From the IMG/VR virus record IMGVR_UViG_3300020388_001444, positions 1 through 42,863 of that record: 42,863 bases of DNA. One strand, 5' to 3'. Position numbers and translations under genes: made by a program. This DNA is from a virus. Its lineage: Duplodnaviria > Caudoviricetes. The notes beneath the pieces are model-generated. The model saw nothing but the letters and a program-made list of their open reading frames with translations. It ran no database searches and was not told where the DNA came from. Positions 1 through 31,730 of this stretch are shown piece by piece. The number at the start of each line of letters is the position of its first letter. The first letter of the stretch is position 1.

Positions 1-384
1 TTAATCTATGAGTTCTAAACGTTTCATTACCGCATCAACTTTTTGCGCGTTAAAGGGCTTAGCTATAAATTCTTTTGCGCCTAGCTCCCAGGTATTTTGC
101 ACTGTTTCAAAGCTATTGTGGCCTGAACACATAACAACATGTGCATGAGGGTGTTCGTTGTTAATCGACTCTAAAATTTCAATGCTTTCAGAATCAGGTA
201 AATCAACATCTAAGAATATAACGTTGGGTGATTTTTCAATAAGCAGAGGTTTAGCACAATTAAAATTATCGCACTCAATAATGTCATCAAAACCTAAACC
301 GGCTAATACTTGGCTTAAATCAGCGCGGATCTGTTTAACATCATCAATAATTAAAATTGGTTCGAGTGGGCGTACAAATTCCAT
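1..384 (-). CDS. Host single-domain response regulator (CheY-like receiver)
   Basis: Receiver motifs: IIDD acidic pair, FLDVDLP phospho-acceptor Asp, CSG, GA..FIAKPF; lies outside the prophage ends. Confidence 0.9.
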   Translation of the reverse strand: MEFVRPLEPILIIDDVKQIRADLSQVLAGLGFDDIIECDNFNCAKPLLIEKSPNVIFLDVDLPDSESIEILESINNEHPHAHVVMCSGHNSFETVQNTWELGAKEFIAKPFNAQKVDAVMKRLELID

Positions 385-571: not shown

Positions 572-599
572 ACTACCTATAATTTATATTATGTTAAAT
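572..599 (+). other. dif: dif-like XerC/XerD recombination site (probable chromosome or chromid dif)
   Basis: ACTACCTATAA-TTTATA-TTATGTTAAAT: 11-6-11 structure; XerD arm identical to the canonical TTATGTTAAAT; XerC arm keeps the inner ATAA. Confidence 0.8.
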
Positions 600-627
600 A
601 GCATATATATGTACTTAAGCAAACTAA

Positions 628-632
628 CTATC
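628..632. repeat. Left copy of 5-bp target-site duplication (CTATC)
   Basis: CTATC immediately precedes TG at 633 and recurs immediately after CA at 42834. Confidence 0.9.
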
Positions 633-831
633 TGTAAGGGGTTGTTCATTTCTAGAATAATGATGATATGAGGATTTTCGCCCTCGTCTTTTGGAAAAGC
701 CCATTATTACTGGGGTTAGCTAATCCTGAGCGGAAAATTAGTTAAATCTGGATTACGCTTGGTTTTAGACGAAACCTGTTCAAACTGACTCATTACCCAA
801 TCATTCCTGCTCATTATACGTTTAGAATTAG
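633..831 (+). repeat. Left end with putative transposase-binding repeats
   Basis: TTCTAGAA at 650-657 (same offset from the end as the right-end site), GGTTTTAGA at 761-769, TTTAGAATTAG at 821-831 (exact reverse complement of 42784-42794). Confidence 0.6.
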
Positions 832-3052: not shown

Positions 3053-3667
3053 CTACAGTTTTGCTATATCGAGTGAAATTGCTTGCTCAATGCCGTTATC
3101 ATCTTGCTTGTAAAAGCGGATAAAGCGGGTTGAGTCAACCACGCCAACGGATTCCGCAATAATGTTCATGGCTTTAGCCCATTTGCCTGAATCGTCAGTA
3201 ATTTCGAGTTTACGCAGCGCTAAAATGCGTTGCGGGTTAAGTGAACCTTGCTTATCGGTATTGAACGTTTTGCTAACAATAGCCTTAATGTTTTGATTGC
3301 CGCCTTCGGTCCATTCATCTAGGCATTGATCAATTAATTGTTTAGCAAGGGTAAGTTCTGGGCCAAGTTCAATGCGTTCTTGCGTTTGCAGAGTTACTTT
3401 TAATTGGCTGTCAAAGGTGCGTAACATCACATTGCCTTTTTTACCGCCTAAGTTAACGCCATGTTCTTGAGCTAATAGCTCTATAAAGTCGTCGGCCTCA
3501 GCCATTAAACTTTGTTTAAACTCTGCCAGTGCTTTTTGCATTTCAATCGCTTTATCAATGGCTTTTTTAACAAACTCGTCTTTGATTAAATCGGTTTGTT
3601 TGATGTTAGCAATGGCGACTAAATTGCCTTTGCCGTCTTTTAAATACCCGTCAGGAACATTATTCAT
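3053..3667 (-). CDS. DUF3164 family protein (common in Mu-like phages)
   Basis: GY..D.KG.LV, GGKKGNV, AK.LID.CL.EW, W..AM..I.ES...RFY motifs. Confidence 0.85.
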   Translation of the reverse strand: MNNVPDGYLKDGKGNLVAIANIKQTDLIKDEFVKKAIDKAIEMQKALAEFKQSLMAEADDFIELLAQEHGVNLGGKKGNVMLRTFDSQLKVTLQTQERIELGPELTLAKQLIDQCLDEWTEGGNQNIKAIVSKTFNTDKQGSLNPQRILALRKLEITDDSGKWAKAMNIIAESVGVVDSTRFIRFYKQDDNGIEQAISLDIAKL

Positions 3668-5162
3668 TGTCTATCTCCACAGTTTTAGAATTAGCCTCGT
3701 TCATGCCTGCCATAAACTCATACTCCATTGCTGATTGGGCTACTTGCACCAGCGTAGAGTCTGAAATATCGGGGAATTGTGAGGTGATTTTTTGTTTAAG
3801 TTCGTCCAGGTCTTTTGATGCCTGAGCAAAATTAAAAAGCTGTTTAATGGTGTCGTCTGTTGCGTGATCAAACACATCTAACTCGTTGGTAAGCTCTACG
3901 CTTTCAGTTGGCTTTTTGGCAAACTCTGTTTTAGCAGGTGTTGCAATGCCATGGCCTTCGTCGGGCACATCAAGTATTGCTTCACCGTCTTTTGGTTTAG
4001 GTACACCGAGCTCTTGATAAGCCCAGTCTTCACCAACTGGCACAATACGGGCGGTTTCGCGCACGCGGGTTACGGTGTCGGTGTTAATTTCGCGTTTGTC
4101 TTTAAAAATGAATTTTGGCGGTTCGCCACCATCAAAATTTACCGTATGAAGCGAATTTAAAAGCTGATTGCGGTATGACGCTACAAGCGCCCTGTCTGAG
4201 CGTTGGTTGTCGCCTGCACGTTTTGCATGAGTTTCGCTGGCAGCACGTGCGCCGCCATTTTTTTGCTCTGTTGCTAAGGTTTGACTGGTTAAAGCTTTGC
4301 TTATTTCAGCATTACAAAAGTTAACCAAGCGCTCGGGCACTGGCTCGCCAGATAGCTTGCTTTCAATAATATCAATGCTTGTGTCATCGGGTATGGCGGC
4401 TATGCCGTCTTGAACAAGCTTAGCTAGCCCATCAAGTAAGTTATTTATGTCTGAATCTTTACTGCCTATTGGGTATTTACCCACAGGAAATGGAATACCA
4501 AAGCGCTCGCACAGCTGTACAAAAAACTTAAAGCCGCCATGCTTAAACGTCCATGGCCAAAAACAACTACTTAATAATGCAATACCATACGGGTTTTCGG
4601 CACTTGGCATATGGCGAACACACGACCAACGACGAGAATCGACTATTTCGCCCTGTGGGTTTTCACTGGTTTTTACTAATAACTCGTGATCACTATTAAA
4701 CGCAAAGCGGCTGTTACGCCATGTTTCTACGTATTCGGGTTGCCAATGGCCATTGCTTTTAATGTACTTGCCAAGGTGGGTAACACTAAAACCATTTAAA
4801 ATGGCGCTGTAATTGTGCCAGTCCATATCGGCCCATTCTGTATGTGGGCATGGTTTACGGGCAAAAAAGGCTTTAGCTAACTCATAACTTTTTAAACTGG
4901 CTGCGTCATCCCCCCCTGGTACAAGCTCGGTGTTAAAGCTAAATAAGCCACTGCGCAGTGAGCGCAACTCTCCAATAACGTGCGCATCACGGGCTATTTC
5001 TTCATAAATAGCGGTGTTTTTACCCGCACGGCGCAGTATTGGATCTGGATTTGGTAGCTCAGTAATAAGCGCTGTTAGGCTAGGGTCTAAGCGGTTTTGG
5101 TCAAACATACGGTTAAGCGCAGCGTATGCTTTTGATGTAATACGTGGCTTGCTTTTAAACAT
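3660..5162 (-). CDS. Portal protein (Mu gp29 / DUF935 family)
   Basis: NPYG..LL, F.ERFG.P..GKY, N.EISKA..QTL motifs; follows terminase. Confidence 0.9.
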   Translation of the reverse strand: MFKSKPRITSKAYAALNRMFDQNRLDPSLTALITELPNPDPILRRAGKNTAIYEEIARDAHVIGELRSLRSGLFSFNTELVPGGDDAASLKSYELAKAFFARKPCPHTEWADMDWHNYSAILNGFSVTHLGKYIKSNGHWQPEYVETWRNSRFAFNSDHELLVKTSENPQGEIVDSRRWSCVRHMPSAENPYGIALLSSCFWPWTFKHGGFKFFVQLCERFGIPFPVGKYPIGSKDSDINNLLDGLAKLVQDGIAAIPDDTSIDIIESKLSGEPVPERLVNFCNAEISKALTSQTLATEQKNGGARAASETHAKRAGDNQRSDRALVASYRNQLLNSLHTVNFDGGEPPKFIFKDKREINTDTVTRVRETARIVPVGEDWAYQELGVPKPKDGEAILDVPDEGHGIATPAKTEFAKKPTESVELTNELDVFDHATDDTIKQLFNFAQASKDLDELKQKITSQFPDISDSTLVQVAQSAMEYEFMAGMNEANSKTVEIDNE

Positions 5163-6894
5163 GATAGCCCCTTATTTGTTTTGTCACTTTACGGCTATTT
5201 ACACGAGGAACGCCGCCTGCCCCTGTACTGGCTATCATCCATAAAATAGCCAGGGCACAACTTAAATCATAGTGATGGGTTGTTTGCTTTTCTGGCCAGT
5301 TTTCAAGCTCGTCGAGTAGTAAGCGACACCGTGAATGAAAGGCAATTTGTGCCGGCGTATTGGTTACATAAGTTTCTAGTGAGCCTATACGTTCCTCTGC
5401 AGATATGGTTGCTGTAACACCACGTAAAGGCAGTGCTATACCTTGCTCTAAGCCTGTAGTAATAAATTGGCTACGCATAAAATCAAAGGCATTGTTATTT
5501 TCAAAGCCCCATACGCGGCAGTTATATTCTTTTTGGGCGCGAATTAAGTCGTTAAGTAAACGGCTAGTACCACGAACCTTACGGCTTTCGTATTCAACGT
5601 GCAGCTTTTGTAAATCTTGGGAATAAAAACCCACTAATATAGCGCTGGGATCGGCTTTTTCTGTTTTGCCCATACTTGGGTCGCACGCGCCATAGGGTAT
5701 CCATTCGTTTAAGCGGTCTACCCAAAAATCAAACTGGTAAAATATGGCTTCTTCGTCACTTTTGGCAATGCCTTGCATTTCACGGTTAAACTCACGTTTA
5801 TTAGCCGCCCACATACACATTAAATCGTAGAGTGTACGCACACTTGGCCAACTGGTTTGGGCACCTTTAAGCATTTGCTTTTTACGCTTTAACCAAAATT
5901 TAAACGAGGGTTTTTGCTCAGTTGAAACAGCCTCACCCTTTGCGGCAGCGCGTTTTTCAAAGCGTTTGTCGTCGTGCACCATTAAATCGCGGCACTCTTC
6001 CCATAAATCCATGCGTTCAGGCATTTGTTTAATGGCTTTAAAGCGGTGAACAATATGCCCTGGTGCTTCTTCGGCGCGGCTTATTGGGTCATCGTTATTT
6101 AAAACGGTATTTACACCTAAAAATTTAACGGTGCCATCGGGTGGGCCAAGGTATTGCACGGCTGCTTCTAAAAAGCGCCAACGGTTATCACGCTCTGTGG
6201 GCGATTTAGCCTCGGCATCGGTAATAATGTCATCGGATAGCAGTAGCTTAGGGCGGCTGGCACCATGGAACGTACCGCGTACTGACTGCTCAGCACCACG
6301 GCTTTCAAAGCGTACGCCTTGCGCTGTTACAAACTCGCCTAACTTCCATACAGGGGATTTTTGGCACACTTCGGGAAAGTCTAACGAAAGATTATTATTG
6401 TTAAGCAACTCAGTTTTAACTACCTCGAGTGTTTTGGTTGGCATTTTTGTTTCAGCGCCAAACAAAATTACAAAATCAATAAATTGGGTTATTTTAGCAA
6501 GGCCCAGGTCTTGGCAAATTTCAGGGTCTTGCAATAGCGCCAGCACCGCTACATACACAGGGGCAATTTTTACCCCAAGGGTACTTTTGCCCTCACCACG
6601 CGGGGCTACAAACCAGTTTTTCCAGCCATTTTTAAGCTTGAGCGCTTCGGGAAACCAGTTCATAAAATAGCTTTGGAATTCAGACGCTGTTTGATCGTCG
6701 TCAAGCCACATATGATGCGGAAAATACGTATAAACAAAAAACTCAAAATCGCCGCCAAGTACACGTTTACGACGTGCTTTAATTGCAGCGGGGCTTGGGT
6801 CTATGTTGCGCTCTTTTGCTTCTATATCACGGCGTAGTGAACCGGTTATTTGTTCTATTTCAGCTAAAAACTCGCGTGAATTCATATCGGCCAT
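5155..6894 (-). CDS. Terminase large subunit (Mu gp28-like)
   Basis: Walker A APRGEGKST, RP.LLLSDD Walker B, nuclease ACDPS; between small terminase and portal. Confidence 0.9.
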   Translation of the reverse strand: MADMNSREFLAEIEQITGSLRRDIEAKERNIDPSPAAIKARRKRVLGGDFEFFVYTYFPHHMWLDDDQTASEFQSYFMNWFPEALKLKNGWKNWFVAPRGEGKSTLGVKIAPVYVAVLALLQDPEICQDLGLAKITQFIDFVILFGAETKMPTKTLEVVKTELLNNNNLSLDFPEVCQKSPVWKLGEFVTAQGVRFESRGAEQSVRGTFHGASRPKLLLSDDIITDAEAKSPTERDNRWRFLEAAVQYLGPPDGTVKFLGVNTVLNNDDPISRAEEAPGHIVHRFKAIKQMPERMDLWEECRDLMVHDDKRFEKRAAAKGEAVSTEQKPSFKFWLKRKKQMLKGAQTSWPSVRTLYDLMCMWAANKREFNREMQGIAKSDEEAIFYQFDFWVDRLNEWIPYGACDPSMGKTEKADPSAILVGFYSQDLQKLHVEYESRKVRGTSRLLNDLIRAQKEYNCRVWGFENNNAFDFMRSQFITTGLEQGIALPLRGVTATISAEERIGSLETYVTNTPAQIAFHSRCRLLLDELENWPEKQTTHHYDLSCALAILWMIASTGAGGVPRVNSRKVTKQIRGYHV

Positions 6895-7400
6895 TAGTCG
6901 TCTAACTCCGTATCGAGCTTAGGACCAAACGCGGTAAGTATTTCAACAAATTCGGGCGCAAAGTCAGGGTATTTGGTTGACACAAACTTAGCCAAAATTT
7001 TAAGCACTTCGGTGGCAATGGTGCGCTTTTCAAGCTTTTTATTACCGCCCGACACTTTCATTACCTTGCTCATCATATCGGTAAGTGAGCTCAATATTTT
7101 GGTGCGTTGGTCAAGTGGCAGTGCTGCGCCTTCGGCTGATTTTAAAAGCTCAAAGGTTTCGTTTACTTGAATGGTAAATTCTTCAATAAAGTCGGTGGTA
7201 AACTCCCCTGCAGTGCCTTCGCTACGGCGGCTTGCTGCACGGGCTAAGTCCCAATCGTCACCGTTTTCTTTGGCTTCCATTTTCCAGCGTCGTGCGGTGC
7301 CATCGGCCACACTGTGCTTAATAGCGGCAACACTTAACGCAAGCAGCTCGGTTACATAGCTGTGGCGTACGGCGTTTTTCTTTTCAGCTGGGTGTGCCAT
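6894..7400 (-). CDS. DUF1804 family protein, probable terminase small subunit
   Basis: MAH...K..VR..Y, TARRWK....GDDWD.ARAA HTH motif; immediately upstream of the large terminase. Confidence 0.8.
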   Translation of the reverse strand: MAHPAEKKNAVRHSYVTELLALSVAAIKHSVADGTARRWKMEAKENGDDWDLARAASRRSEGTAGEFTTDFIEEFTIQVNETFELLKSAEGAALPLDQRTKILSSLTDMMSKVMKVSGGNKKLEKRTIATEVLKILAKFVSTKYPDFAPEFVEILTAFGPKLDTELDD

Positions 7401-8557: not shown

Positions 8558-10186
8558 TTATTCAAAGTTATTTTGAGTTTTTTTTAATGCGTTTAACAAA
8601 AACCAAATATTCCCTCTTTTTAGTGATGGATCTAAAGTCTTTTGATACTTATCTAAATAGATAATTAACTCATTAGTCACTTCTTTTTCTTTTTCTAGCT
8701 CCTTGGATGCACCTATAAAGTCCACTCTTCCATTTATAAAGGCTGCAAAATATCCAATATCTCGGCCTTTCCAACCAATTACTAATTGTTTTAAAGTTTC
8801 GATTTTTATTTCATGCAAAATCGGTCTTGTTTTATATCCTGCATCTGTATAAAGGCAAGAATTTTTGAATGACTTTCTCATTTCATTTATTAATTTAGTT
8901 AATTCTTGGCTTCTTTGATCTTTATAAATAGAATCAAGGTATCTATCTAATTCTAGCTCATATTTTTCTTCAACAAATGTTCGACTTCTCATCCCTTCAT
9001 AATTTTCAAACTGTTTTGAACTAGCAATATTATTAATTTTTTCAAAAGTTATTCTTTCATCTTCTTCTAAAAAGCCTTTTGAAACTAAAAATTCATAGTA
9101 ATCAAAACATTCAAAAAACTTCTGTACGACAACATTTTGTTCATTCAGTATGTAATTTTTAAGTTCTTCAGCACCTTTTTCAAAGTCTTGTTCTGATAAT
9201 GTGTATACTTGGCTATAAAGAAGCTTATCTAAATGTGAATCTTTCTGAGGAAGTGAACTTTCGGGAAAAATATTTTCGAAATTATTTTCCTTCCCCGTCA
9301 TGTATGAGAAAAAATTCTGGTGTTGTCTAAAAGAAAAAGCCTTGTAGTACTTATCATCTCGTTCAGTTATCTGCTCTTGGTTATCAACATAAAAACTTTT
9401 TGCGATAAAAATCCCGTCACTTATTATTTTTGATTTCGTTAGCTCATAGTCAATCCTAGAAAACTGTTCCAGATATAAAATAAGAGATTCAATGCGCTTT
9501 AAACTTCGTTTGAGAACCCTCAAATTGGTTAAATTGTTTTCTTTTATCAGTGTTATGATCAATTCTTCGTCTTTAGCTAACTTTTTTAACTCAGGCTTTA
9601 TAGCTAAAAATAACTCTGTGGGACTCTGCCTAAAAATAATTGTTTCAGAGAATGTTTTTTCAGTAAAGGATTGTTCAAGGTTGAGTTTTTGTTCATCAGT
9701 AACGAAAATAAATTTATTTTCGCTTTGTGTAAGTGTTAAACATTCTCCAATAATATGCTTTTTTAAAGAAGAACACTCGATACGCTCAATATCATCAATA
9801 ATAAATAATTCATCAGAAATATTTTTTAGCATATAGTGTTTTGCAGCACCTGCAGAGCCTTTAATAACGTTACTAATGATACTAGAACCACCTGTCACTT
9901 TCTCTGCTGTAGCAAGTAAATGTGTTAGATGGGTTACCCCTTTTGCATCATGCTTTTCTTCTAAATATCTTTTTGCTATTAATAAATCTTTAAAGTCATC
10001 TAGTGATGTAATGCCTAGTACCGATAGATATGTGATTTTATATTGGAATTTGGTTTTGAGTTCAGTTGTTAAAATTTTTTCAACATAGTAAGTTTTACCA
10101 ATGCCCCATCTACCAGTAAATATAATCATGGGTGGGTATGAGTCATCGTTGAATAGATCATTTATCTGAGTAGCGTAGTCTTGCAT
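8558..10186 (-). CDS. KAP-family P-loop NTPase (AT-rich moron)
   Basis: G.WG.GKT Walker A, IIDDIER Walker B, EK.F, N.R.LKR motifs; visibly AT-rich. Confidence 0.8.
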   Translation of the reverse strand: MQDYATQINDLFNDDSYPPMIIFTGRWGIGKTYYVEKILTTELKTKFQYKITYLSVLGITSLDDFKDLLIAKRYLEEKHDAKGVTHLTHLLATAEKVTGGSSIISNVIKGSAGAAKHYMLKNISDELFIIDDIERIECSSLKKHIIGECLTLTQSENKFIFVTDEQKLNLEQSFTEKTFSETIIFRQSPTELFLAIKPELKKLAKDEELIITLIKENNLTNLRVLKRSLKRIESLILYLEQFSRIDYELTKSKIISDGIFIAKSFYVDNQEQITERDDKYYKAFSFRQHQNFFSYMTGKENNFENIFPESSLPQKDSHLDKLLYSQVYTLSEQDFEKGAEELKNYILNEQNVVVQKFFECFDYYEFLVSKGFLEEDERITFEKINNIASSKQFENYEGMRSRTFVEEKYELELDRYLDSIYKDQRSQELTKLINEMRKSFKNSCLYTDAGYKTRPILHEIKIETLKQLVIGWKGRDIGYFAAFINGRVDFIGASKELEKEKEVTNELIIYLDKYQKTLDPSLKRGNIWFLLNALKKTQNNFE

Positions 10187-11012: not shown

Positions 11013-11411
11013 TTACGCCCCCTGCTTTGCTTTATGGCGTGCAAGCCATTGCTTAAGTACTTCAATAATATGCGGCCACTGCTGGGCGCTTTGGCTGAGC
11101 TTTTTGCCTTGTAAGTGTTTTTCACAAAACGCATCGCAGGCCTGTTTTGAATCGATATTTACAGCGCCTGCGCGGCTCAATTGGCCCCACAGGCTGTAAA
11201 TCATTTTTAGTTGTGCGGGTAACTGTGTTTTACCCGCATTTGGGTTCATAGCGCGGTAACGTGCAAGCAGTTGCTGTTGCTCAAGCTTGGTTAAACCTGT
11301 GCAGGTATTAACACGACCATCGCAAATGTACGACACATTAAGTTGGTGGGTATGTTGGTCGATACCCGCCGCCTTTTGTGCAATTTTGATTTGCTGAGTC
11401 AAGTTGCTCAC
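11013..11411 (-). CDS. Mu GemA/gp16-like regulatory protein (DUF1018)
   Basis: I.IA....GI, KMI..LW..L, IIE.LK.W..R motifs. Confidence 0.8.
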   Translation of the reverse strand: MSNLTQQIKIAQKAAGIDQHTHQLNVSYICDGRVNTCTGLTKLEQQQLLARYRAMNPNAGKTQLPAQLKMIYSLWGQLSRAGAVNIDSKQACDAFCEKHLQGKKLSQSAQQWPHIIEVLKQWLARHKAKQGA

Positions 11412-11767
11412 GCTATGTCCTCCAGGGCTTCAATTTCAAAGTGTGGCGCTTGGCCTATGCCAATAATTTTAATGCCCCAGTCTTTCATGCCGCTGGTATA
11501 AACCAGCGGAAAATCACGATAGATATTATTAAAACGTCTTGCTGTGTGGGCATGAGAGTTAATTTCATGCACATGGTGAATACTAAATAACTTGTCGGCA
11601 GCAAGTGTTGCAAAGGCCGCTTTAATGTTGCCATCGCATTTATCTATGAGCTCGCCTTGTGGGTCTTTTTTAGCAAGTAGGCTAAGCATTAATGCGTTTG
11701 TAACCAACGAGCTAAATGCTAAATGCGCCGTGTAACGTGATGTGTTTAATTTTATTGAAAATGCCAT
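11408..11767 (-). CDS. Hypothetical early protein
   Basis: 119-aa ORF with AAGGA SD, directly after muB. Confidence 0.65.
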   Translation of the reverse strand: MAFSIKLNTSRYTAHLAFSSLVTNALMLSLLAKKDPQGELIDKCDGNIKAAFATLAADKLFSIHHVHEINSHAHTARRFNNIYRDFPLVYTSGMKDWGIKIIGIGQAPHFEIEALEDIA

Positions 11768-11780
11768 GATTAAATCCTTA

Positions 11781-11808
11781 TTTAAATTATGTTTAAACGG
11801 CGTTTAAA
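11781..11808. repeat. Phased TTTAAA array 2
   Basis: TTTAAA at 11781, 11792, 11803. Confidence 0.75.
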
Positions 11809-13039
11809 CCGCTGGTTTATTAAGTACTGATGAAAAAATGCCATTAACTAACAGCTTGTCTACGGCGGTGTCTGGGTTTTTGTTGGTGTGGTTAAGCAAG
11901 TGCGGTAACAGGTTTTCAACCAGCTCACGGGCGTTACCTTCAACGCGTTTGTGCAGCCATTGCCACCATTTTGCATCATCTTGGGCGAGCTTTACGGTGC
12001 CTTCGGTGAGCTCTAAAAACAGGGTGCGAATGTCTTCAACGGTTATTTGGCCGATAGGTTTAGGCCAAAAGCATACGCGGCTTGCAATCAGTTCGTAGCG
12101 CTCTTGGGTTTGCAATTTGTCTACTAGTTGAATGTTGCCAACCAAGGTTACGCCTACAATGGCTTGGTCGCTTATGGTGCGCAGTGGGTCGAGCGAGTTT
12201 GGTTTGCATTTGTCGGCTTCGTCTAAAATTATTAGGCGGTCGGTATCACGCAGTGCTTGAATAATTTTTTGCATGTTTTTATACGCGCTTGGGCAGCGCG
12301 ATAAGCCCAGGGCTAAAGTTAGTTGCTCTAGCACTTGGGTACTGCTGGTTTGCTCACTGCCAGCAATTAAAATGGCCTCTTTGTTTTGGCGGCAATATTC
12401 CGTAATACCTTTGGTTTTACCCAGCCCTGCTTGGCCTGCAAATACACTAAAGCGTTTACGTTGGCGAGCTTGGTCGCATGCCATAGCAATAAGCTTAGAT
12501 GTACTGGTAGGAATAAAGCGCACATCACCGTATACAATACTTATATGCTTACGCTCTATGTTTGGTTTGCCTTGTTCAAGTTCTGCAGGGCAAATAAGTG
12601 CCCAAATATCGTGTAAGTGCTTAGTAGGCTTGGCGTTGTATTTACCGTTAATAAGTTGGCTTATTGATGCAGGGCTTTTACCCATGCTCACAGCAATACT
12701 GGCACTGGTAATGTTTTGGTCGCGTATTTCGGGTGATTGCAAACGCAAGCAAATACGCGCTGCCAGTTCGCGATCAGCTTTGTTGTACGATTTATTAAAG
12801 CCGTTACGTTTTTCAATGTCGGTAATAGCGGCTTCACCAAATAGCTTATGCCACAAAGCCACAATGACTTTTTCAGGGTTAATGGTGCATTTATTTGCTA
12901 GTACTTCTTTAACTGATTGCAGTGCAAAACCACAGTTAAGTTCCTCAATACTCATGCCTGTGGTGCTTAGCTCTTGGTTTATAAGCTCAACTCGGTGCGA
13001 TTGTTCTTCTGTATATGGGTGTGGTTGGCTATAGCTCAT
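11804..13039 (-). CDS. MuB-like AAA+ transposition ATPase with N-terminal HTH domains
   Basis: G.AGLGKT, IILDEAD, L.G, SR motifs; follows transposase; likely start ATG 13039 with AAGGA SD. Confidence 0.9.
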   Translation of the reverse strand: MSYSQPHPYTEEQSHRVELINQELSTTGMSIEELNCGFALQSVKEVLANKCTINPEKVIVALWHKLFGEAAITDIEKRNGFNKSYNKADRELAARICLRLQSPEIRDQNITSASIAVSMGKSPASISQLINGKYNAKPTKHLHDIWALICPAELEQGKPNIERKHISIVYGDVRFIPTSTSKLIAMACDQARQRKRFSVFAGQAGLGKTKGITEYCRQNKEAILIAGSEQTSSTQVLEQLTLALGLSRCPSAYKNMQKIIQALRDTDRLIILDEADKCKPNSLDPLRTISDQAIVGVTLVGNIQLVDKLQTQERYELIASRVCFWPKPIGQITVEDIRTLFLELTEGTVKLAQDDAKWWQWLHKRVEGNARELVENLLPHLLNHTNKNPDTAVDKLLVNGIFSSVLNKPAV

Positions 13040-14693
13040 AGGTTTGTTCCTTGCGTTCATTAGGTTGATCAAGTAATTCGTTTAGGTCGATTTCGTGCTG
13101 CGCCTGTGTTGGCGTTACATCAAAATCAAAAATGTTTATGGGTGCTTGCTGTGCCTCAATACCCTTAATAGGTGCAGCAAACTTAGTTACAGACTCAACA
13201 TCAATAATGCGGTCTTGGGTTTCTTGAGCTTCGATTTCACGGCGCTTGGTGTCGATGCGTTTTAAGCGGCCAGTTCGGCGTTTGCTTTCGGCTTGCTCAA
13301 TACGTGACGTAGGCACTGCATGCGATTTAGTTTTTAAGTTAGCGAACATTAAAAACTCACCGTTTAGCTTATAAAGTTTGGTGTAGCTGTCGTCGTGCAG
13401 GTCGTAGGCGGCAATGAGTTCTTGGCCATTAAACTGGTGTAAAAAGTCGGCGCTGTAATCACGTTGGTGCAAGCGAAAACGGCCACGACGAATGTTTACG
13501 GTTTCGCGTGGTAGCATCACAAAGTCGCCCTCTACTGGTGGTACGCGCTCTATGTTTTCGTCCCATACTTGCTGGCGTGTTTTGCCCTTAACTTCAGGGT
13601 GTTCGCTGTTGTGGTAGTCGTTTAAAAAGGCTTTAAACTCAGCTATCCATTCGTCTACAGTAGGCAGTTTACGTTTGCCTTGTTTAGCCTCTTTAAGTAC
13701 CAGTTGCTTATGGCGATCGTCGTGGTCGCGCCCGCAATACGTGCTAAAGCGTTTACCCACGCGGTCTTCCATGTGTAAAAAGAACCGCTCTATCCACTTA
13801 ACCCGTGCATTACCTGGTATGGCAAAAATAACGTCTATTTCAAACTGGGCGTAAAAGCCAGTTGTATCGTCGTTCATGAGTTTGTTTTTGTAGCCTGAGC
13901 CGTTATCTAGGTAAAACATGGCAGGCACGTTGTTATGCACTTTAATAGCGCGACTTATTGCTGCTAGCGTATCGAGTGTGCTTTCGGCATAGCCAAGTTC
14001 CCAGCCCACAATGCAGCGGCTTGCTACGTCTTGAAACGCGGTTAACTCAGCACGGTAAGGCTTACCTGTTTTAGGGTGCGCTAGGTATACGTCGAGCGTG
14101 TGGCCATCGCCGTTATACATAACGCCTGGCTTAATATTATTAGTAGAGCGCAACAAATGATCTTTATGTTTTTCACGGTAAAGTTTTGCACCCATACGAT
14201 ACGGGCTTTGTGGGCCAAGCTCGTGCGGCAGTGCATTAATAAAGCGGCGCACTTGGTGATGCTCGGCCTTGTAACCCTCTTTATTTAGTTGGTCGCTCAC
14301 TTGTGCGAAGCTTGGGCTGTTTGGGCTGTGATAAAGCTCAAGGCAGCGGGCAAGCCAGCTGTACTGGGTTTGTGCTTTACCTTTATGGTTAGGTAATAGG
14401 CCGTTAATGCCGTTGTCTTTGTAGGCATTGCACCAGTTATAAATGGTTGCACGCCCTGGTAACTTACCCAGTGCATCAATAGCGCTAATAAGTGTGCCCA
14501 GCGCTGTATTGGTGCGGTAGGCATTAACCAGTGCTTCAAACGCTTTTGGTAACGCGCATTCTTGGGTTAATAGATGGCGTACTATTACCGCCCTACTTTG
14601 GGCTTTTTTACGGGCTGTTTCGCTGGCATTTTGCCAACTCAGCTCGTTACCTGTGCTTGGTAACTTATTGTATTTTTGAACTGCAGGATGCAT
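13029..14693 (-). CDS. MuA-like DDE transposase
   Basis: GDGHTLD, YLDNGSGY and IERFF triad; YHN..H; Mu-type C-terminal domain. Confidence 0.92.
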   Translation of the reverse strand: MHPAVQKYNKLPSTGNELSWQNASETARKKAQSRAVIVRHLLTQECALPKAFEALVNAYRTNTALGTLISAIDALGKLPGRATIYNWCNAYKDNGINGLLPNHKGKAQTQYSWLARCLELYHSPNSPSFAQVSDQLNKEGYKAEHHQVRRFINALPHELGPQSPYRMGAKLYREKHKDHLLRSTNNIKPGVMYNGDGHTLDVYLAHPKTGKPYRAELTAFQDVASRCIVGWELGYAESTLDTLAAISRAIKVHNNVPAMFYLDNGSGYKNKLMNDDTTGFYAQFEIDVIFAIPGNARVKWIERFFLHMEDRVGKRFSTYCGRDHDDRHKQLVLKEAKQGKRKLPTVDEWIAEFKAFLNDYHNSEHPEVKGKTRQQVWDENIERVPPVEGDFVMLPRETVNIRRGRFRLHQRDYSADFLHQFNGQELIAAYDLHDDSYTKLYKLNGEFLMFANLKTKSHAVPTSRIEQAESKRRTGRLKRIDTKRREIEAQETQDRIIDVESVTKFAAPIKGIEAQQAPINIFDFDVTPTQAQHEIDLNELLDQPNERKEQTYEL

Positions 14694-14702: not shown

Positions 14703-15623
14703 CTACTCGCGGGTTTTAATACGGTCGTTAAACATGGCGAGCATGTATTCACGGTTTGCTTGGGCGTCTTGCCATTCGTCTTCGGCAAATTGTGGTATGC
14801 ACTCAGCGCCGGCTAAATGCTCGGGGCCAAACTCGCCGCTTAAGCGGTTGAGCATGTGGGTAATGCGTTGTTGTATGCCTAACCATAAATGCCATGTGGT
14901 TTGTGCAGCACCTATCCGGTGGTTTAGGTCAAGATCGCGGGTATTACATAGTTGCTCGACCATGGCTATAAACTCTTCGAGCGACTCGTTAACAACGGCA
15001 TTATGTGCAAACGATTTTTGGCGCACCTGTGCAACCAGCATAGGCAGCTCGTACATTTGCTTTGGGGCTTTGGTTAAGCGCTCTGTTTCAAGGGCGTTTA
15101 TAAGCGTGGCTGTTTGTTGTTCAAGGTCGGTGTGCTTGTCTTTTAGCTTGCGAATTTCTTTACGGAACTCACGCACTGATAAATCGTTAAGCGTGTCTAG
15201 GTCGTCGTCATCTAACGATTCAACGGTTTCAACAGGCAAACGCGCCATTTCAATGAGTTTGCTTTTGTTCATGTTTAAAACGGCCGACGTCAGCCGTTTT
15301 GACTCTGGCAGCGCTAAAAACATTTTTGCTACAGCAATACAACTCCTTGCTGAACGTGGAGCAATGGAGTACTCATTTAACTTAGTTTCAAACTCACCGT
15401 GGCCTAAATGCATTTTGATCGACATATACAACAGCCCGCGCTTTGCGGTATCTACCAGCGCTTGCTCTTCCATACGCACAACCAATTGCCATGCGTCGTC
15501 AACTGAATCAGGCATTACAAGTTGTATGTGCCCTGCCATCTTTTCGATTTTGGCACTGAGTTGTTGTTGCTCTTCGGCACTAAAAACCTGAATTTCAGAC
15601 GGTTCTTGGTCTTTGATGGTCAT
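14703..15623 (-). CDS. DUF3102-domain protein
   Basis: G.....K..L.HGEF...L.....RSA...VA motif followed by a coiled coil; upstream of transposase as in many Mu-like phages. Confidence 0.7.
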   Translation of the reverse strand: MTIKDQEPSEIQVFSAEEQQQLSAKIEKMAGHIQLVMPDSVDDAWQLVVRMEEQALVDTAKRGLLYMSIKMHLGHGEFETKLNEYSIAPRSARSCIAVAKMFLALPESKRLTSAVLNMNKSKLIEMARLPVETVESLDDDDLDTLNDLSVREFRKEIRKLKDKHTDLEQQTATLINALETERLTKAPKQMYELPMLVAQVRQKSFAHNAVVNESLEEFIAMVEQLCNTRDLDLNHRIGAAQTTWHLWLGIQQRITHMLNRLSGEFGPEHLAGAECIPQFAEDEWQDAQANREYMLAMFNDRIKTRE

Positions 15624-16583: not shown

Positions 16584-16653
16584 GTTTCAATATTTTGTAT
16601 ATTATTGATATTGCTTGTAATTAAAATGGATGAAAGTTTCAATAAATGACAAC
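16584..16653. promoter_or_regulatory. Additional degenerate operator sites
   Basis: GTTTCAATATTTTGTATA (16584-16601) and GTTTCAATAAATGACAAC (16636-16653, overlapping the repressor ATG). Confidence 0.6.
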
Positions 16654-17320
16654 ATTCTTGCGCGATGAACGTAATAGGTTAGAACTCACTCAAGCTGAGG
16701 CATCAAAAGCAATAGGGGTAGGAAAGACAACTTTTCTCCGTTGGGAAGCTGGGAATCCAATTCCTTCTGATAAGTTAATTGCCTTATCCGATATTGGCTT
16801 TGACATTAACTATGTCCTTAAAGGTTGCAAAGAAGAGCCATTACCAGCTAAGTCATCACAAAGTTCCGCGCTGCAAACCAGTCATGCTGATTTAACACCC
16901 GTGCCGCAATACGATTTAGCGGCCAGTGCGGGAGGTGGTGCTTTAGTTATTGCCGAGCACCCTATTGCACGGTTTGAGCTTTCAACGCGTTGGCTGCAAC
17001 AAAATAACTTACATAATAAAAAATTAACTGTGGTACCTGTACGCGGCGATAGTATGGAACACACTTTGTGTGATGGTGATTTAACCTTGGTATCGCTAAT
17101 TGATGACCCTGCGGATGCACGTGAGGGTGTATGCGTACTCAGGTTTGACGATGAAATTTTTGTAAAACGCATTCAGTACGACTTTAAAAGTAAGGGTTAT
17201 AAAGTCACCAGTGACAATACAGCTTACTCAGGTTTTTTTGTTGAAGTTGAAGATATTGAATCTGGCAGGTTCACAGTGCTTGGCCGTGTTGAGCGCGTAC
17301 TGCAAAGGACGAAGGTTTGA
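16646..17320 (+). CDS. CI-like repressor (XRE HTH + S24 peptidase)
   Basis: LTQ.E....GV......WE.G HTH; SAG cleavage site, GDSM Ser, VKR Lys. Confidence 0.92.
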   Translation: MTTFLRDERNRLELTQAEASKAIGVGKTTFLRWEAGNPIPSDKLIALSDIGFDINYVLKGCKEEPLPAKSSQSSALQTSHADLTPVPQYDLAASAGGGALVIAEHPIARFELSTRWLQQNNLHNKKLTVVPVRGDSMEHTLCDGDLTLVSLIDDPADAREGVCVLRFDDEIFVKRIQYDFKSKGYKVTSDNTAYSGFFVEVEDIESGRFTVLGRVERVLQRTKV

Positions 17321-18138
17321 TGGACTTAGATGAATTTTTAAAACTTGGTTTATTTGCCTCTTTAACTGTAGCGGGGACAATCGGTTTCGCAAGAATATTT
17401 TTTAAAGGTTACATAGAGCAAAAAAGCAAAAATCTTGCTACCAAAGAAGATGTTTGTGAAATTACCCATATTGTTGAGAAAATTAAAACAGATAATGCTC
17501 ATACTTTAGAAAACATCAAAGCTGAACATGCTAAAAAATTAGAAGAAATCAGAAAAGAAAACCAATTATTAGTTTCTACCGTAGATAAACATTTAGCTCT
17601 AAAAATTAAAATTTATACTGATGCAATAGTGGCTTTTACATCTTTAGGACATAATTTACTCGAACTGATCGACTCTCAAAATAACTCAAATACCTTTAAT
17701 ACTGCAATAATAAATGAATCAAAAATAATATCTAAAGTTAGAGTTGTTGGCTCTATTGAAACCTGCGTTACTGCTCTAGAAGCTATGGCAATGTTCAATA
17801 AAATAGCCCTAGAACTTCAAAATAAGCGAGTTAGAATCTTAGTAGATAAGGATAGACTTGAATTATTAGAGAAAAAGAAAACATTAGAAAAAAATGAGAG
17901 TGAAGAGTTAGATAAATTAATAGACTCACAACTAGCAGATACGATTGATATTTCAAATCTCTGTTTGGAAAGAAATAATGAGTTTTCCGGTTTAGTCACA
18001 CGCTTTGTGTTTTCAGCTAGAAAAGAACTTGGTTTAGAAATAAATGAAGCAGAATTGATACAGGCTGAAAATAATAATACAAAATCAGTAAATGAATCAT
18101 TTGAATCTTTTATAAATGATATGGAAAAGATGCAATAG
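17320..18138 (+). CDS. Membrane-anchored coiled-coil moron protein coupled to the repressor
   Basis: TGATG stop/start overlap; N-terminal TM; K..NLATKED...IT motif; AT-rich. Confidence 0.75.
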   Translation: MDLDEFLKLGLFASLTVAGTIGFARIFFKGYIEQKSKNLATKEDVCEITHIVEKIKTDNAHTLENIKAEHAKKLEEIRKENQLLVSTVDKHLALKIKIYTDAIVAFTSLGHNLLELIDSQNNSNTFNTAIINESKIISKVRVVGSIETCVTALEAMAMFNKIALELQNKRVRILVDKDRLELLEKKKTLEKNESEELDKLIDSQLADTIDISNLCLERNNEFSGLVTRFVFSARKELGLEINEAELIQAENNNTKSVNESFESFINDMEKMQ

Positions 18139-18330
18139 AGCTCCCTGATTTCGATCAGCCAATAGATTTATAGAAACCTAAGCTTTTAACTACGAAATAT
18201 TCAATTTAGAAGGATCTAATTATGAAACATCAAAACTCAATTGAGTCAGATCACCTCGATTCACCAAAAAATAAGCTATCTTCTTTATGTATGATTGCAT
18301 CTTATAAAACAGATAAAAATAAGAAACGAT

Positions 18331-19221
18331 ATGAACGATAAAATTAAACAAATATTTAAAATATCTTATGATACAACTGAAACTGCAGATCATACTATTG
18401 ATGCTGTTCTACTTGGCAATGCCATAATTAATACAGCCAATGTTTTGAAACATACAGATAAAATGCTAAATGGTGAGGACTCTACTATTGACCTTGAAGT
18501 GCAAGCAAACAGCGAGGGCTCTTTCGTCATTGAGTTTGTTACTTGGCTAAATGGAAGTGGAGTTAACCCTCTAACTTTACTTGGTTTTGCAGCTGTACCT
18601 ATAGGAATAAAAAGCTTAATGGATGTGTTGGGGGAGATTAATTCTAGACCAGTTAAAGCCTGTGTTGATATGGGGACTGGTATTTCGAGGCTTGTTTTTA
18701 AAGATGGCTCTGAAATTAAAGCTGATAGTAACATTGCCCGTTTAGTTGTTGACCGAACATTTAGAAAAGATCTTGAAAAAGTTGTGAAAGCACCTTTAGA
18801 AGGTGCTAAAGATGGAAAACTTATATTTAAAGATGCAAACGATGTTCAAGTATCATCCTTTGTGGAAAAGCAAGTCAACGACTTTAAAACCCCTACACGT
18901 GAGGTTGTTGAAGAAGTAAAAGAAGAGATAACAAATACAGAATTACGCTTTGTAAAAGTTAACTTTAGCGGCTCAAATGGATGGACAGCACAACTTACTA
19001 ATGGTGATAATATTAGCGTAAAAATGAAAGATGATACTTTTCTTACTAGAATTGATGAAAATAAACGTGTATCCAAAGGTGACTTATTCGTTGTAAAATT
19101 AAAAACTACAACAATATTTAAAACTGGCGCGAACCCTTCAGTTAGTCGTGAAGTGATTAAGGTAGAACGCCATCGAGCCGCTAAAGAAGATAAGTTAATA
19201 CCAGATAATAATGATGAGTGA
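18331..19221 (+). CDS. Hypothetical moron protein
   Basis: About 296-aa ORF (likely ATG 18331) with YD...H.ID and A..EGSF motifs seen in prophage accessory genes. Confidence 0.75.
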   Translation: MNDKIKQIFKISYDTTETADHTIDAVLLGNAIINTANVLKHTDKMLNGEDSTIDLEVQANSEGSFVIEFVTWLNGSGVNPLTLLGFAAVPIGIKSLMDVLGEINSRPVKACVDMGTGISRLVFKDGSEIKADSNIARLVVDRTFRKDLEKVVKAPLEGAKDGKLIFKDANDVQVSSFVEKQVNDFKTPTREVVEEVKEEITNTELRFVKVNFSGSNGWTAQLTNGDNISVKMKDDTFLTRIDENKRVSKGDLFVVKLKTTTIFKTGANPSVSREVIKVERHRAAKEDKLIPDNNDE

Positions 19222-19459
19222 AACTGAGGCATACTTTAGATTAATTTTAATGGCAAGCACTTTATTGTGCTTGCCTTATGTTTTCTTATATGTAACGCCC
19301 ATACTTGCTAAATTGTTCGTAGCTCGTTTTTTTCCACCAAAACATTTAGACGTTGAAATTATTAATGGTGATACGATTAATAAAAAGCGTATTTCTCTTG
19401 AAAATGATGACGAACTCATTAATGCTTTATTAAACATAAGGGATAATGTTAATGAGTAG
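19211..19459 (+). CDS. Small single-TM protein
   Basis: Overlaps upstream gene; N-terminal hydrophobic helix. Confidence 0.65.
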   Translation: MMSETEAYFRLILMASTLLCLPYVFLYVTPILAKLFVARFFPPKHLDVEIINGDTINKKRISLENDDELINALLNIRDNVNE

Positions 19460-19838
19460 ATTGTTTAAGAGCCCATTACTCATTGGTTTTGCTACGGGTA
19501 TAAATACGATTGCAATTGCGGTTATCCAAGTGAATGTTACAGGTGAAACCAATAGATTAGCATACTCAGCATGTACACCATTCATTTGTAACACAATTGT
19601 CTTTATTATTGATTGGTTTTTAGCTAAAAAAAACGTTAAAAGCTCAGAGCAACTTAGGATTGAGAATTTACTAGATGATAAAATTTCTATTGCTCAGAAA
19701 AACCTTAAAGAAGCAATCAAATATAATTTAGACGTTGATACCTTTAAACAGCAATTGACCAAATTAATGAATGCGAGAGCTAACGTTCCTGCACTTGTCT
19801 CAAGAGCTCAAAATAGAAAAAGGCAAAGCGACTCTTAA
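19446..19838 (+). CDS. Two-TM protein with C-terminal coiled coil
   Basis: Overlaps upstream gene; two hydrophobic segments; followed by a terminator. Confidence 0.7.
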   Translation: MLMSRLFKSPLLIGFATGINTIAIAVIQVNVTGETNRLAYSACTPFICNTIVFIIDWFLAKKNVKSSEQLRIENLLDDKISIAQKNLKEAIKYNLDVDTFKQQLTKLMNARANVPALVSRAQNRKRQSDS

Positions 19839-19865
19839 CTCGTTTATTAAATGCTATTAGATTAG

Positions 19866-19895
19866 AAAGGCCCCAAGCTAGGGGCTTTTTTTTTT
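19866..19895 (+). terminator. Intrinsic terminator between convergent genes
   Basis: GCCCC-AAGCTA-GGGGC followed by T10. Confidence 0.85.
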
Positions 19896-19918
19896 GCTAT
19901 ATTTCAAGGTTACGCATA

Positions 19919-20119
19919 CTATTTTTTGTTAATATTGTCGTAGAGGATACACTCTATTTTAGAAAGGTAAGCAGCAATCTTATTGTTCGACGCTGCGATC
20001 ATAAACCCAGAAACTAACTCTGGGTTATTTCGAGCATAGTCATCTCCAAATAGAGTATCAATAGATTGCTTGGCTTGATGCAATATTTGGTCAGTATCTT
20101 GTGCTAAATCTTTATCCAT
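19919..20119 (-). CDS. Hypothetical protein
   Basis: 66-aa ORF with AAGGA SD; ID..FG..YA..NPELV..F motif. Confidence 0.7.
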   Translation of the reverse strand: MDKDLAQDTDQILHQAKQSIDTLFGDDYARNNPELVSGFMIAASNNKIAAYLSKIECILYDNINKK

Positions 20120-20132
20120 TGTTTTCCTTTAA

Positions 20133-20561
20133 TTATTTGATAATTGAATCTATTAAATCGTCATCTAAATGTACTGTTGCTTGTCTTGAAAAAGAAATTT
20201 TCATTTTTACAACTGGTTCAATAAAATCGAACTCAAAAGATAATGATTCAATATTACCTTCAATCGTTGGTTCAGAATCTAATAATAGAGATATAGATGC
20301 AGCCAATTGATTTTCTATGTTTGAAATAGGTATATTCTTTAATGATTGGAGTTTCTGGCTCGAATAGTTATCTTTTTTCTCTTTTCCATGATCTTCTAGA
20401 ACGAGTTTACCTGTATCATCCTTGTAAACAGTTTGATTAAACTCAAAATGTACTAACTTCTCTCCCCTTGTTTTTAGCCTATAAAAATCAAGTCCGCCAA
20501 AATGAATTTCTACATCATCATTAAATCCATTTAATTGTTCTTTTAAATCACCAACATTCAT
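20133..20561 (-). CDS. Hypothetical protein (possibly two fused small domains)
   Basis: 142-aa ORF with GAGG SD. Confidence 0.7.
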   Translation of the reverse strand: MNVGDLKEQLNGFNDDVEIHFGGLDFYRLKTRGEKLVHFEFNQTVYKDDTGKLVLEDHGKEKKDNYSSQKLQSLKNIPISNIENQLAASISLLLDSEPTIEGNIESLSFEFDFIEPVVKMKISFSRQATVHLDDDLIDSIIK

Positions 20562-20687
20562 AATTAACCCTCACATATTTTAGATTCAACATTATAGAAT
20601 AAATATTACCCTATTAAGAAGGATGGCTGTAAGCGATTTTAAGCACCCTACTTTGTTTTGTAGCTACATTGCCTTACGCGCAATCCG

Positions 20688-20746
20688 TTTAAACACACTC
20701 AATCGAATTTAAACACAGTTTAAACATGGTTTAACTTGTATTTAAA
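20688..20746. repeat. Phased TTTAAA array 3 near the prophage midpoint
   Basis: TTTAAA 20688, 20708, 20719, TTTAAC 20730, TTTAAA 20741. Confidence 0.8.
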
Positions 20747-20747
20747 G

Positions 20748-21122
20748 TTAAGATTCTACGTTTTGGTAATTAAGCCATGTTTTATGAAATTGTTGTTTGG
20801 TTGTTTTGAACTCTAAATTTAAATCTGTTGCCATACTGAGGTTGTGCCTAAGGGTTAAACGAATGTACTCGGATTCTGTAATAACTTGATCAACATATGC
20901 CTGATTAAGGTCGGCTATAAACTCTTTACTTGGGTTTGACTCCAATTTATTGGTAAGTGCTACGTAGAGTTGAGGCATGGCCTCATCGGGATTTGATGAA
21001 AGGTATTTATCTGGATTGTTGATATATAAATACACACCTAGTCCAATACCAGACAAAAGAAAGTATGCAGCTATAGTAATGAGTGTTTTATTTAAGGTTT
21101 TTAAATGAGCTTGCTTTAGCAT
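20748..21122 (-). CDS. Single-TM hypothetical protein
   Basis: N-terminal hydrophobic helix; ATG 21122 with AAGGA SD. Confidence 0.65.
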   Translation of the reverse strand: MLKQAHLKTLNKTLITIAAYFLLSGIGLGVYLYINNPDKYLSSNPDEAMPQLYVALTNKLESNPSKEFIADLNQAYVDQVITESEYIRLTLRHNLSMATDLNLEFKTTKQQFHKTWLNYQNVES

Positions 21123-21172
21123 AACCAATCCTTGGTGATTTTGTGTTTATTTAATATAGTATTTTAAAAATT

Positions 21173-22009
21173 ATGTACAAGGGACTTGATGTGGAAACGG
21201 TTGATAAATTTTTAAATTTTTTAGTTAAATGCTTCTCTATTGATGAAAGTAGAGCATTACACAAGAACTATTCTTTTTGGTTTGCACTATTAACTCCAGC
21301 AATTATTGCATTGCTACTTGGTCTGAATTTAACTAGAGAGCTAGTTATACATGAAAGGTTCGATTTTGGTTTTACGGCTGTGCATTTGGATTCGTTTATT
21401 AAGTATTACAAGTTTCCTATCGGTCTTTTGCCTATATCAATATTGTTGAGTGTTATGGTCGCTCGGTTTCATGCATCTAAGCAAACAGTTCAACAAACCC
21501 ACCTCAAAAATTATTTTGAACACTTTTCGTTTTTTGAATCGTTCTGTAATGATTTAGAAAAGAAGCATAATGTAAATATTAATGTTCGGGCACTGTATTT
21601 GAATTTTTATAATAAATCGAACATTAATCACTTTAGCCCTGTTCCAAGTGATGACTTGATCCATAGTTATGTTTATACATTACAGCTACTTTCTGATGAA
21701 ATAGAGTGTAACAGTGATTTAGATTCTGTAGAAATAGCGACATATAAGGATCATATCCCTGATTTTGAAGGTGATTTCAGTCTCATAACCTTAGATAAAG
21801 ATAAAAGTAACACTTATTATTGGGCATATGAAATGAAGAACCTTGTAAATGAGTTCTATTCTTTCCCTGGTAATAGAATAACCGCATTAAAGTTTATGGA
21901 GATTGAAAATAAACTCACACAATCATTCACAAATTTAACTCGTTCTCTAGCTCAGAACTTCCCTACAGTTGATTTGGAAAGCTTATTATTTTTTGACATA
22001 AAGGATTAA
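21173..22009 (+). CDS. Two-TM moron membrane protein
   Basis: Two hydrophobic segments, H.S.QT..Q....NYF.H motif; AT-rich. Confidence 0.75.
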   Translation: MYKGLDVETVDKFLNFLVKCFSIDESRALHKNYSFWFALLTPAIIALLLGLNLTRELVIHERFDFGFTAVHLDSFIKYYKFPIGLLPISILLSVMVARFHASKQTVQQTHLKNYFEHFSFFESFCNDLEKKHNVNINVRALYLNFYNKSNINHFSPVPSDDLIHSYVYTLQLLSDEIECNSDLDSVEIATYKDHIPDFEGDFSLITLDKDKSNTYYWAYEMKNLVNEFYSFPGNRITALKFMEIENKLTQSFTNLTRSLAQNFPTVDLESLLFFDIKD

Positions 22010-23305: not shown

Positions 23306-23309
23306 AACC

Positions 23310-23705
23310 ATGGCACAACCAGGATTTATAAAAAACTTTAGCGCTGAAGACGTTATACCGGCTAACCGTTTAGTGGTTGTATCGGCTGCGGCTGACTTTC
23401 ATGTTGGGTTAGCGGTTGATGCCAGCGCAATGTATGCCGGTGTTACCGAGCAAGGCACTGACGAGCATTTACGTGTTGATGTAGTAATGACACAAAGCGC
23501 CCCAGTTGAGTTTGGTGCCGCGTTAATTGCAGGCACCCTAATTGTTGCTGATAGCGAAGGTAAAGCCGTTGAGTTTGACCCTGCTAACTTTGTGGGCCAA
23601 ACCGAAGTATACGTTGCAGGTTGGGTAATGGAAGACGGCGAAGCTGGAGTGATTGGCGACGTGTTTTTAAACCCGCATGTAGTAGCAACAATTCCTAGCG
23701 CTTAA
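23310..23705 (+). CDS. Capsid decoration/cement protein (DUF2190-like)
   Basis: Small Ala/Gly/Val-rich protein between protease and capsid. Confidence 0.7.
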   Translation: MAQPGFIKNFSAEDVIPANRLVVVSAAADFHVGLAVDASAMYAGVTEQGTDEHLRVDVVMTQSAPVEFGAALIAGTLIVADSEGKAVEFDPANFVGQTEVYVAGWVMEDGEAGVIGDVFLNPHVVATIPSA

Positions 23706-23746
23706 GGCGCTTGGGTTAACTTAATTATTAATAGTGAGGATTTGCC

Positions 23747-24682: not shown

Positions 24683-24705
24683 TTAATTATTGTTGTTCCC
24701 TGTGT

Positions 24706-24741
24706 AAAGGCCCCAGTACCGACTTGCTCGGGGCCTTTTTT
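24706..24741 (+). terminator. Intrinsic terminator after the capsid gene
   Basis: AAAGGCCC...GGGCC followed by T7. Confidence 0.8.
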
Positions 24742-24758
24742 TACTAACTGAGGTGCCC

Positions 24759-25226: not shown

Positions 25227-25227
25227 A

Positions 25228-25650: not shown

Positions 25651-25695
25651 GAAGCCTCTTGGTTAAGTTTAAACAGTATTTAAAGAGCATTTAAA
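25646..25695. repeat. Phased TTTAAA array 4
   Basis: TTTAAG 25646; TTTAAA 25668, 25679, 25690. Confidence 0.75.
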
Positions 25696-26138: not shown

Positions 26139-26338
26139 GCAAACAGACCGAGCCGCAATCGAGTAAACCCGCTGAACAACAGGCTGACGTTAACATAAAG
26201 CCTAAAATATCCCGCGCGATGACGATTGCCCAAAACGTTAACCAGGCTTTAGCTAAAGCAAAAGGTAACAGAGACGAGATAGCCGGCGCTTTTAACTTAA
26301 AAAGCGGTGAGCTAATTAAAGTGGAGAATAAATCATGA
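26135..26338 (+). CDS. Hypothetical protein
   Basis: ATGA overlaps on both sides. Confidence 0.65.
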   Translation: MSKQTEPQSSKPAEQQADVNIKPKISRAMTIAQNVNQALAKAKGNRDEIAGAFNLKSGELIKVENKS

Positions 26339-27234: not shown

Positions 27235-27271
27235 GTTAGTTATTCATAAATAATAAATTAGGACAGCAAAA

Positions 27272-31727: not shown

Positions 31728-31730
31728 CTA

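Follow-up and report, generated by a model that had tools for sequence, protein, structure and literature searches.

A clade of transposable phages that inserts repeatedly beside dif in Pseudoalteromonas

Mu is the textbook random integrator, and a Mu-like prophage found a few tens of base pairs from the dif site of its host raises the question of whether such a position is chance or choice, and by what means it might be chosen. The window considered here, 42,863 nucleotides long, is one entire virus record (IMGVR_UViG_3300020388_001444), whose homologues point to Pseudoalteromonas as the host genus. It holds a complete transposable prophage of 42.2 kb (633–42834) with TG...CA ends, the left end starting with TGTAAG at 633 and the inverse of this motif ending at 42834, and the prophage is bracketed by a 5-bp target duplication (628–632 and 42835–42839, plus strand). 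On the same strand the dif site occupies 572–599 in the arrangement 11-6-11, i.e. XerC arm (572–582), spacer (583–588) and XerD arm (589–599), the last a perfect match, and 33 bp separate this arm from the phage TG. A first-pass annotation of the sequence had proposed an 11-6-11 dif at this place, a target duplication followed by the phage TG, and a prophage about 30 bp from a dif that it left undisrupted. All of this is confirmed: the duplicated 5-mer recurs at the far end, an empty allele (the single 5-mer followed directly by the right flank of the window) is present in locus L003 and in a contig of run X2, and dif is intact outside the phage.

The chance of a dif core within the 632-bp flank is approximately 4e-5. 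The 28-mer of the window is identical to the chromosome I dif of the complete genome G063 (at 1.768 of 3.521 Mb), whose chromosome I record opens with a gene that we take, by eye, to be dnaA. The GC skew of G063 changes sign at dif, 10 of 11 sampled 20-kb pieces before it being positive and 8 of 9 after it negative, so that the proposed location at the skew terminus holds for this relative. The site has the features expected of dif, namely a 28-bp 11-6-11 sequence with a XerD arm, a single occurrence per chromosome and a skew switch, as measured in G063; a XerD gene is present in G019.

The phage itself is Mu-like in most respects. Beyond a host response-regulator gene in the flank (1–384, minus strand; Pfam PF00072, E 3e-20), the left end (633–830, plus) carries TTTAGA-type repeats that are conserved across the clade and are likely transposase-binding sites. 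The left arm, on the minus strand, ends with a Mu F-like head morphogenesis gene (915–2057; PF04233), and Pfam/PHROG scans place in it a Mu-type portal, a large terminase and a DUF1804 gene (3660–7400) and a DDE transposase of 554 aa with rve and Mu-transpos_C domains (13029–14693). It also encodes a 119-aa protein (11408–11767) after a MuB-like AAA+ ATPase (11804–13039), which is 411 aa long and carries two HTH-like domains in tandem at its N-terminus. The same scans identify a CI-like repressor on the plus strand (16646–17320), where the two arms diverge, the head maturation, tail and fibre genes of the other arm (22160–41370, plus), and Mor and GemA genes; among the 45 ORFs they give no match to TniQ, a resolvase or a tyrosine recombinase. 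Transposable phages are marked by a DDE transposase with a MuB-like ATPase and by TG...CA ends with a short target duplication, all present here, and the Mu-type head, late-activator and GemA genes add to the likeness; the near-random prophage position that is typical of Mu-like phages, although no part of the definition of the family, is not seen. In its divergent gene order the phage resembles BcepMu/B3-type phages. Among isolated phages the closest are Curvibacter TJ1 and Burkholderia KS10, with 36–37% transposase identity, and in a tree with two outgroups the 19 transposases of the clade form one group (100/100).

Three low-GC regions of the window (8558–10186, 17317–22009 and 41586–42488) contain accessory genes that vary between relatives, the first with a weak KAP-NTPase score, and these may be defence or exclusion cargo. 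A 2090-aa tail tip/fibre protein (33393–39665) is partly common to relatives.

The transposase of this clade was detected in 19 of 140 Pseudoalteromonas genomes, all 19 of which have at least two dif-core matches, and in 16 of them the transposase gene lies 11–15 kb from a dif, as the phage map predicts. In the fragmented assemblies G040 and G103 the left end lies 34 and 18 bp from dif, and G057 is a true exception, with a clean insertion and clean duplication 185 kb from dif, inside what reads by eye as an efflux-pump gene. Two collections were also scanned for the phage end by itself (18 and 36 loci), and all sources were then pooled, giving 110 ends in 62 junction clusters (30-bp flanks less than 80% identical). 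In 43 of these 62 left-end clusters dif is found upstream, always with its XerD side towards the phage and in one orientation; in 34 it lies within 150 bp, with an arm-to-end distance of 14–145 bp, and 17 fall at 20–36 bp. A reversed dif was never found upstream (0 among 109 ends), nor was any dif found after right ends (0 among 15).

Most junctions that lack a dif are short: 12 rows have a flank of at most 204 bp, three of these rows being one contig. Seven lack dif despite a flank of at least 600 bp, namely G057, L053 from Psychrobium, L384 and L082, each a second copy in a tandem array, and three metagenome junctions (the L349 group, L353 and L361), in which dif was not found within 600 bp. 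Where dif is in view or the flank reaches at least 600 bp, dif is therefore upstream in 43 of 50 clusters, against a chance of 2–4e-5 for a dif-adjacent position per random insertion. Other MuB loci served as a control and numbered nine in 401 genomes of the order: the four on a dif-bearing contig lie 91 kb, 1.2, 1.8 and 2.1 Mb from dif, two are on other contigs and three are in genomes without a dif match. Distant gpF loci have no dif within 10 kb, and with their ends unmapped they are weak controls. Helical phasing of the insertion distances is weak (p 0.03–0.24). The clade almost certainly targets dif when inserting, and the first-pass suggestion that dif is a preferred target of this phage group is supported; the scatter of related prophages that would speak against it was not seen, the phages keeping to one side and one orientation at dif. 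That dif-adjacent insertion benefits the phage as a safe haven, as was also suggested, may be so.

Such a pattern could descend from few events, and the junctions speak to this directly. There are 28 different distances to dif within 150 bp, one host allele has phage ends at both 33 and 67 bp, and a perfect 5-bp duplication is found in 12 of the 15 prophages with both ends mapped, which supports insertion by DDE transposition as first proposed. Clean duplications occur at 22, 33, 62, 108 and 129 bp from dif and beyond. The dif of chromosome II is used in G023, G075 and G125, and where dif is inverted relative to the neighbouring genes (G050, G054 and G056) the phage keeps to the XerD side. The variable distances, the use of both chromosomes’ dif and the phage following an inverted dif argue for repeated targeted insertions.

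The three remaining prophages of the 15 (G019, G063 and G079) have mismatched end pairs, consistent with more than one hit at the site. The 275-bp duplication of G063 looks like the product of two insertions, at about 63 and 338 bp, that later recombined, and in G079 three end letters accompany the duplicated 5-mer. In G040, L386, G054 and L017 the full left end is preceded by a partial one of 10–37 bp, and a second left end follows 46–47 kb further on in G054 and G125. The 6-bp TGTAAG seen ahead of some left ends was not counted as such a relic, because in G023 it belongs to the host target. Several right ends and two left ends lie within 1.4 kb in L082/L316, an array that suggests repeated insertion and decay. 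Damaged dif sites are seen in L017, L364 and L390, with a 37-bp partial left end ahead of the full end, while L242 (G021) and G022 are prophage remnants at dif that retain a left end and F gene with no transposase match; in G021 a stretch of dif-side DNA is repeated 5.5 kb apart. On the host side of the left end, L128, L134 and L046 contain small genes and dif variants, which by eye look like remnants of dif-integrating filamentous phages.

Two features of the phage, both absent from the first-pass annotation, bear on how dif might be found. The right end (42780–42834, minus) has two TTTTAGA repeats, and immediately inside it is a perfect XerD arm (42769–42779, minus) starting at end position 56. 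This arm, with at most one mismatch, is present in 13 of 18 right ends (two rows sharing one junction) and in two further ones, 15 of 20 altogether, at position 55–57 from the end, or 68 in G057; the local chance of a XerD arm is approximately 1e-3 per 100 bp. Only the 11–12 bp of the arm are kept. The letters on either side vary, the spacer is unconserved, there is no XerC arm, and its place is filled by the inner end repeat, all of which makes this a half-site and not an attP. The arm is absent at the right ends of G023, G050, G054, G094 and G125; these prophages lie 113–3446 bp from dif with side and orientation still kept, so the arm is not required. In the host the XerD-arm 11-mer is rare (6–19 exact copies per genome) and is clustered near dif in G056 and G094, and no single polarity is seen there that would make polarised host half-sites the reason for the right-end arm. 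All 10 exact 11-mers of chromosome I in G056 (G056:C1) lie within 2.17–2.64 Mb of 4.90 Mb, and near the terminus of G056:C1 and G094:C1 isolated XerD half-sites may serve the host.

The other feature is an enlarged MuB. Residues 8–72 match residues 84–152 (HHalign 94.6%, E 7e-8, compared with 0.2% for the control), and a structure model has two helical N-terminal domains; judged from these comparisons, the extra domain is a duplicate of MuB’s HTH-like domain. Homologues of at least 42% identity are 401–432 aa long in 33 of 34 cases, the other being a 268-aa fragment, compared with 314–345 aa for three distant homologues and 350–351 aa for the outgroup open frames. The protein has only a weak TniB-like score, and an atlas search with residues 12–170 gave a best score of 0.80, a lead only. 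The neighbouring 119-aa protein belongs to no Pfam/PHROG family, its profile matches clade loci only among the loci fetched, and its confident predicted fold has no PDB match at E≤0.001; it is a candidate targeting factor. The 306-aa gene before the transposase (14703–15623, minus; DUF3102-like by feature search) was rejected as target selector, as outgroup phages carry a homologue. The off-target prophage of G057 has both the right-end arm and a two-HTH MuB, so these parts are not sufficient.

A second host element beside dif has to be considered. PAL is an 11-6-11 palindrome (494–521 in the window, 3244–3267 in L319, and seen also in L053) that accompanies each dif with one copy per chromosome, empty sites included, and is not part of the phage. 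It was found in 32 of 121 genomes of the family, and a gene for a 403–432-aa tyrosine recombinase follows it directly on chromosome II in G019 and G063 as well as in Psychrobium. In Colwellia G529, where no XerD exceeds the cut-off, PAL lies about 0.5 kb from a weak XerD-family match. PAL recalls single-recombinase systems and is a candidate for a second dimer-resolution site of that kind, and its system a candidate for the resolution system reported missing in Colwellia psychrerythraea in the available part of PMC2731167. PAL was rejected as an anchor in Pseudoalteromonas because the side of dif on which it stands varies and it is 520 bp away in G020. In the Psychrobium locus L053 only 19 bp separate the same phage left end from PAL, a XerD arm was not found in 3.6 kb and, in an incomplete assembly, there is no XerD over the family cut-off; the right end of this prophage was looked for and not found there. 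L347 is like L053 with a short flank.

Taken together, the observations make it somewhat probable, by analogy with the res-site hunters Tn5053/Tn402, that the phage, a ‘dif hunter’ in this view, reaches dif by docking its transposition complex on XerD-bound dif. On infection, MuA would assemble on both phage ends, and the two-HTH MuB, perhaps with the 119-aa protein, would recognise the XerCD–dif complex and load on the DNA beside XerD. Host XerD, if bound 55–57 bp from the tip of the right end, would provide a further link to the dif complex and make the position more precise, and MuA would then insert mostly 14–145 bp away, leaving dif intact. Later phages inserting at the same spot would give nested ends and tandem prophages, and lytic replicative transposition would likely be untargeted. 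The constant XerD side and orientation at dif, the right end’s lone XerD arm and the doubled HTH domain of MuB support docking on XerD; against it stand G057, the arm-less prophages, L347, the three metagenome junctions without dif and, as the strongest counter-result, L053 in its incomplete assembly with no XerD over the cut-off. A fuller version is put forward only tentatively: host XerD would be the phage’s target selector, with the right-end arm bridging to dif and the doubled MuB domain loading the ATPase, a site-specific Mu with a two-mode life whose relatives may switch to the second resolution site in hosts without XerCD. If true, lysogeny would be aimed and replication random, and a cis-encoded tether to a host recombinase would be unlike any described target selector.

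The placement of L053 beside PAL without a XerD arm keeps alive the alternative that the cue is not XerD itself but the whole resolution machine, e.g. FtsK arriving and activating the recombinase, or else DNA shape, the right-end arm then serving chromosome housekeeping. FtsK translocates to dif and activates XerD (described in the part of PMC5357621 available), arm-less phages keep side and orientation, and L347 repeats the PAL association. This is nevertheless an unlikely account, as the side tracks dif even where dif is inverted relative to the chromosome, the end in G020/L395 lies 22 bp from dif and 520 bp from PAL, and the fixed place of the arm beside the transposase repeats is left unexplained. 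The assembly from Psychrobium is incomplete, and of the 21 loci returned by a scan for phage ends next to a PAL half-site, 20 were chance matches and one was a known locus. It could also be that the tandem MuB domains themselves read the sequence of the XerD arm, both at dif and inside the phage right end, bridging the two without a host protein. Such reading would suit the presence of two HTH-like domains, the restriction of right-end conservation to the arm, the phage end 12 bp from a lone host XerD arm in G022 and the one in L128, 23 bp from an arm whose XerC side is degenerate. With several exact copies of the arm in the genomes, yet nearly all ends at a full dif, direct reading appears doubtful; it does not explain Psychrobium, and the N-terminal domain of Mu’s MuB is described as mediating filament contacts (in the title of a reference in PMC7350765).

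Random insertion, with dif-near prophages surviving better or descending from one old insertion, draws on the fact that all prophages sampled are surviving lysogens, on the clean off-target insertion in G057 and on the secondary recombination in three junction pairs. It is very improbable given the 28 distances and clean duplications at several of them, the use of both chromosomes in one orientation by phages scattered in the transposase tree, and the persistence of other Mu-like prophages far from dif. The XerD arm inside the phage might also recall an attP used for XerCD recombination, as in integrative mobile elements exploiting Xer (IMEX), but a dif left whole outside the phage at varying distances, TG/CA ends with a 5-bp duplication and a phage site with neither XerC arm nor shared spacer leave this route hardly credible, and the junctions already contradict it.

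Docking on XerD-bound dif is the reading we prefer. Among known systems, the clade shares with Mu-like phages a DDE transposase, MuB ATPase, Mor, GemA, Mu portal, F gene, TG...CA ends and a 5-bp duplication. Mu samples all parts of the genome, with poorer access to Ter when MuB is missing (PMC7350765, available part), and phage Ab30 has 42 hotspots 55–61 bp from BIMEs that take 5% of insertions with no orientation bias (PMC5977238, available part), whereas in this clade one type of site holds most prophages, in one orientation. Transposons of the Tn5053/Tn402 group insert at res sites by means of the target’s resolvase, with a preferred orientation, 5-bp repeats and rare off-target events (PMC7765201, in the part available). 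The phage likewise inserts by DDE chemistry next to a host recombinase site, in a preferred orientation and with 5-bp repeats, but its target is a chromosomal tyrosine-recombinase site, the element is a phage lacking the tniABQ and res-tniR module, with no TniQ or resolvase in its 45 ORFs, and it has a copy of the recombinase arm in its own end. Tn7-like elements (TnsD, TnsE, TnsF) resemble it in AAA+ ATPase-guided insertion at a neutral site where arrays accumulate, and differ in that the window ORFs have no match to the TniQ/TnsD/TnsF family and the distance is variable. By word search of the available text, dif is not named as a Tn7-like target in PMC10293859 (on TnsF) or PMC11406308, from which ‘dif’ and ‘XerD’ are absent. 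Like IMEX (CTX, TLC, GGI and LME-1) the phage exploits dif and sits at the terminus; unlike them, it does not recombine into dif through Xer but transposes beside it, with no crossover inside dif, no hybrid att sites and a XerD arm only in place of a XerC plus XerD dif mimic.

No report of a transposable phage targeting dif was found in the literature searched, which mostly did not extend to subscription papers; ‘dif’ is absent from the available part of PMC5498523, on Mu-like Pseudoalteromonas phages, and the discussion and three supplements of PMC9765430 gave no match. The dif-targeting clade is real and recurrent, with none found in print. Its transposition beside dif adds to Xer recombination as a third means of exploiting this site, and the clade illustrates the evolution of target choice within the MuB/TnsC family, the same chemistry being aimed at one universal gene-free landmark. 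Two small parts can be named for testing, the 11-bp arm and the 85-aa duplicate MuB domain, and an oriented, large-cargo integration tool for marine bacteria could follow. As a minor observation, the linear record G013 (L013, L021) is near-complete and has at either end a short flank without a match. Virion DNA or a copy made during replication would look like this, which hints at replicative packaging with host DNA.
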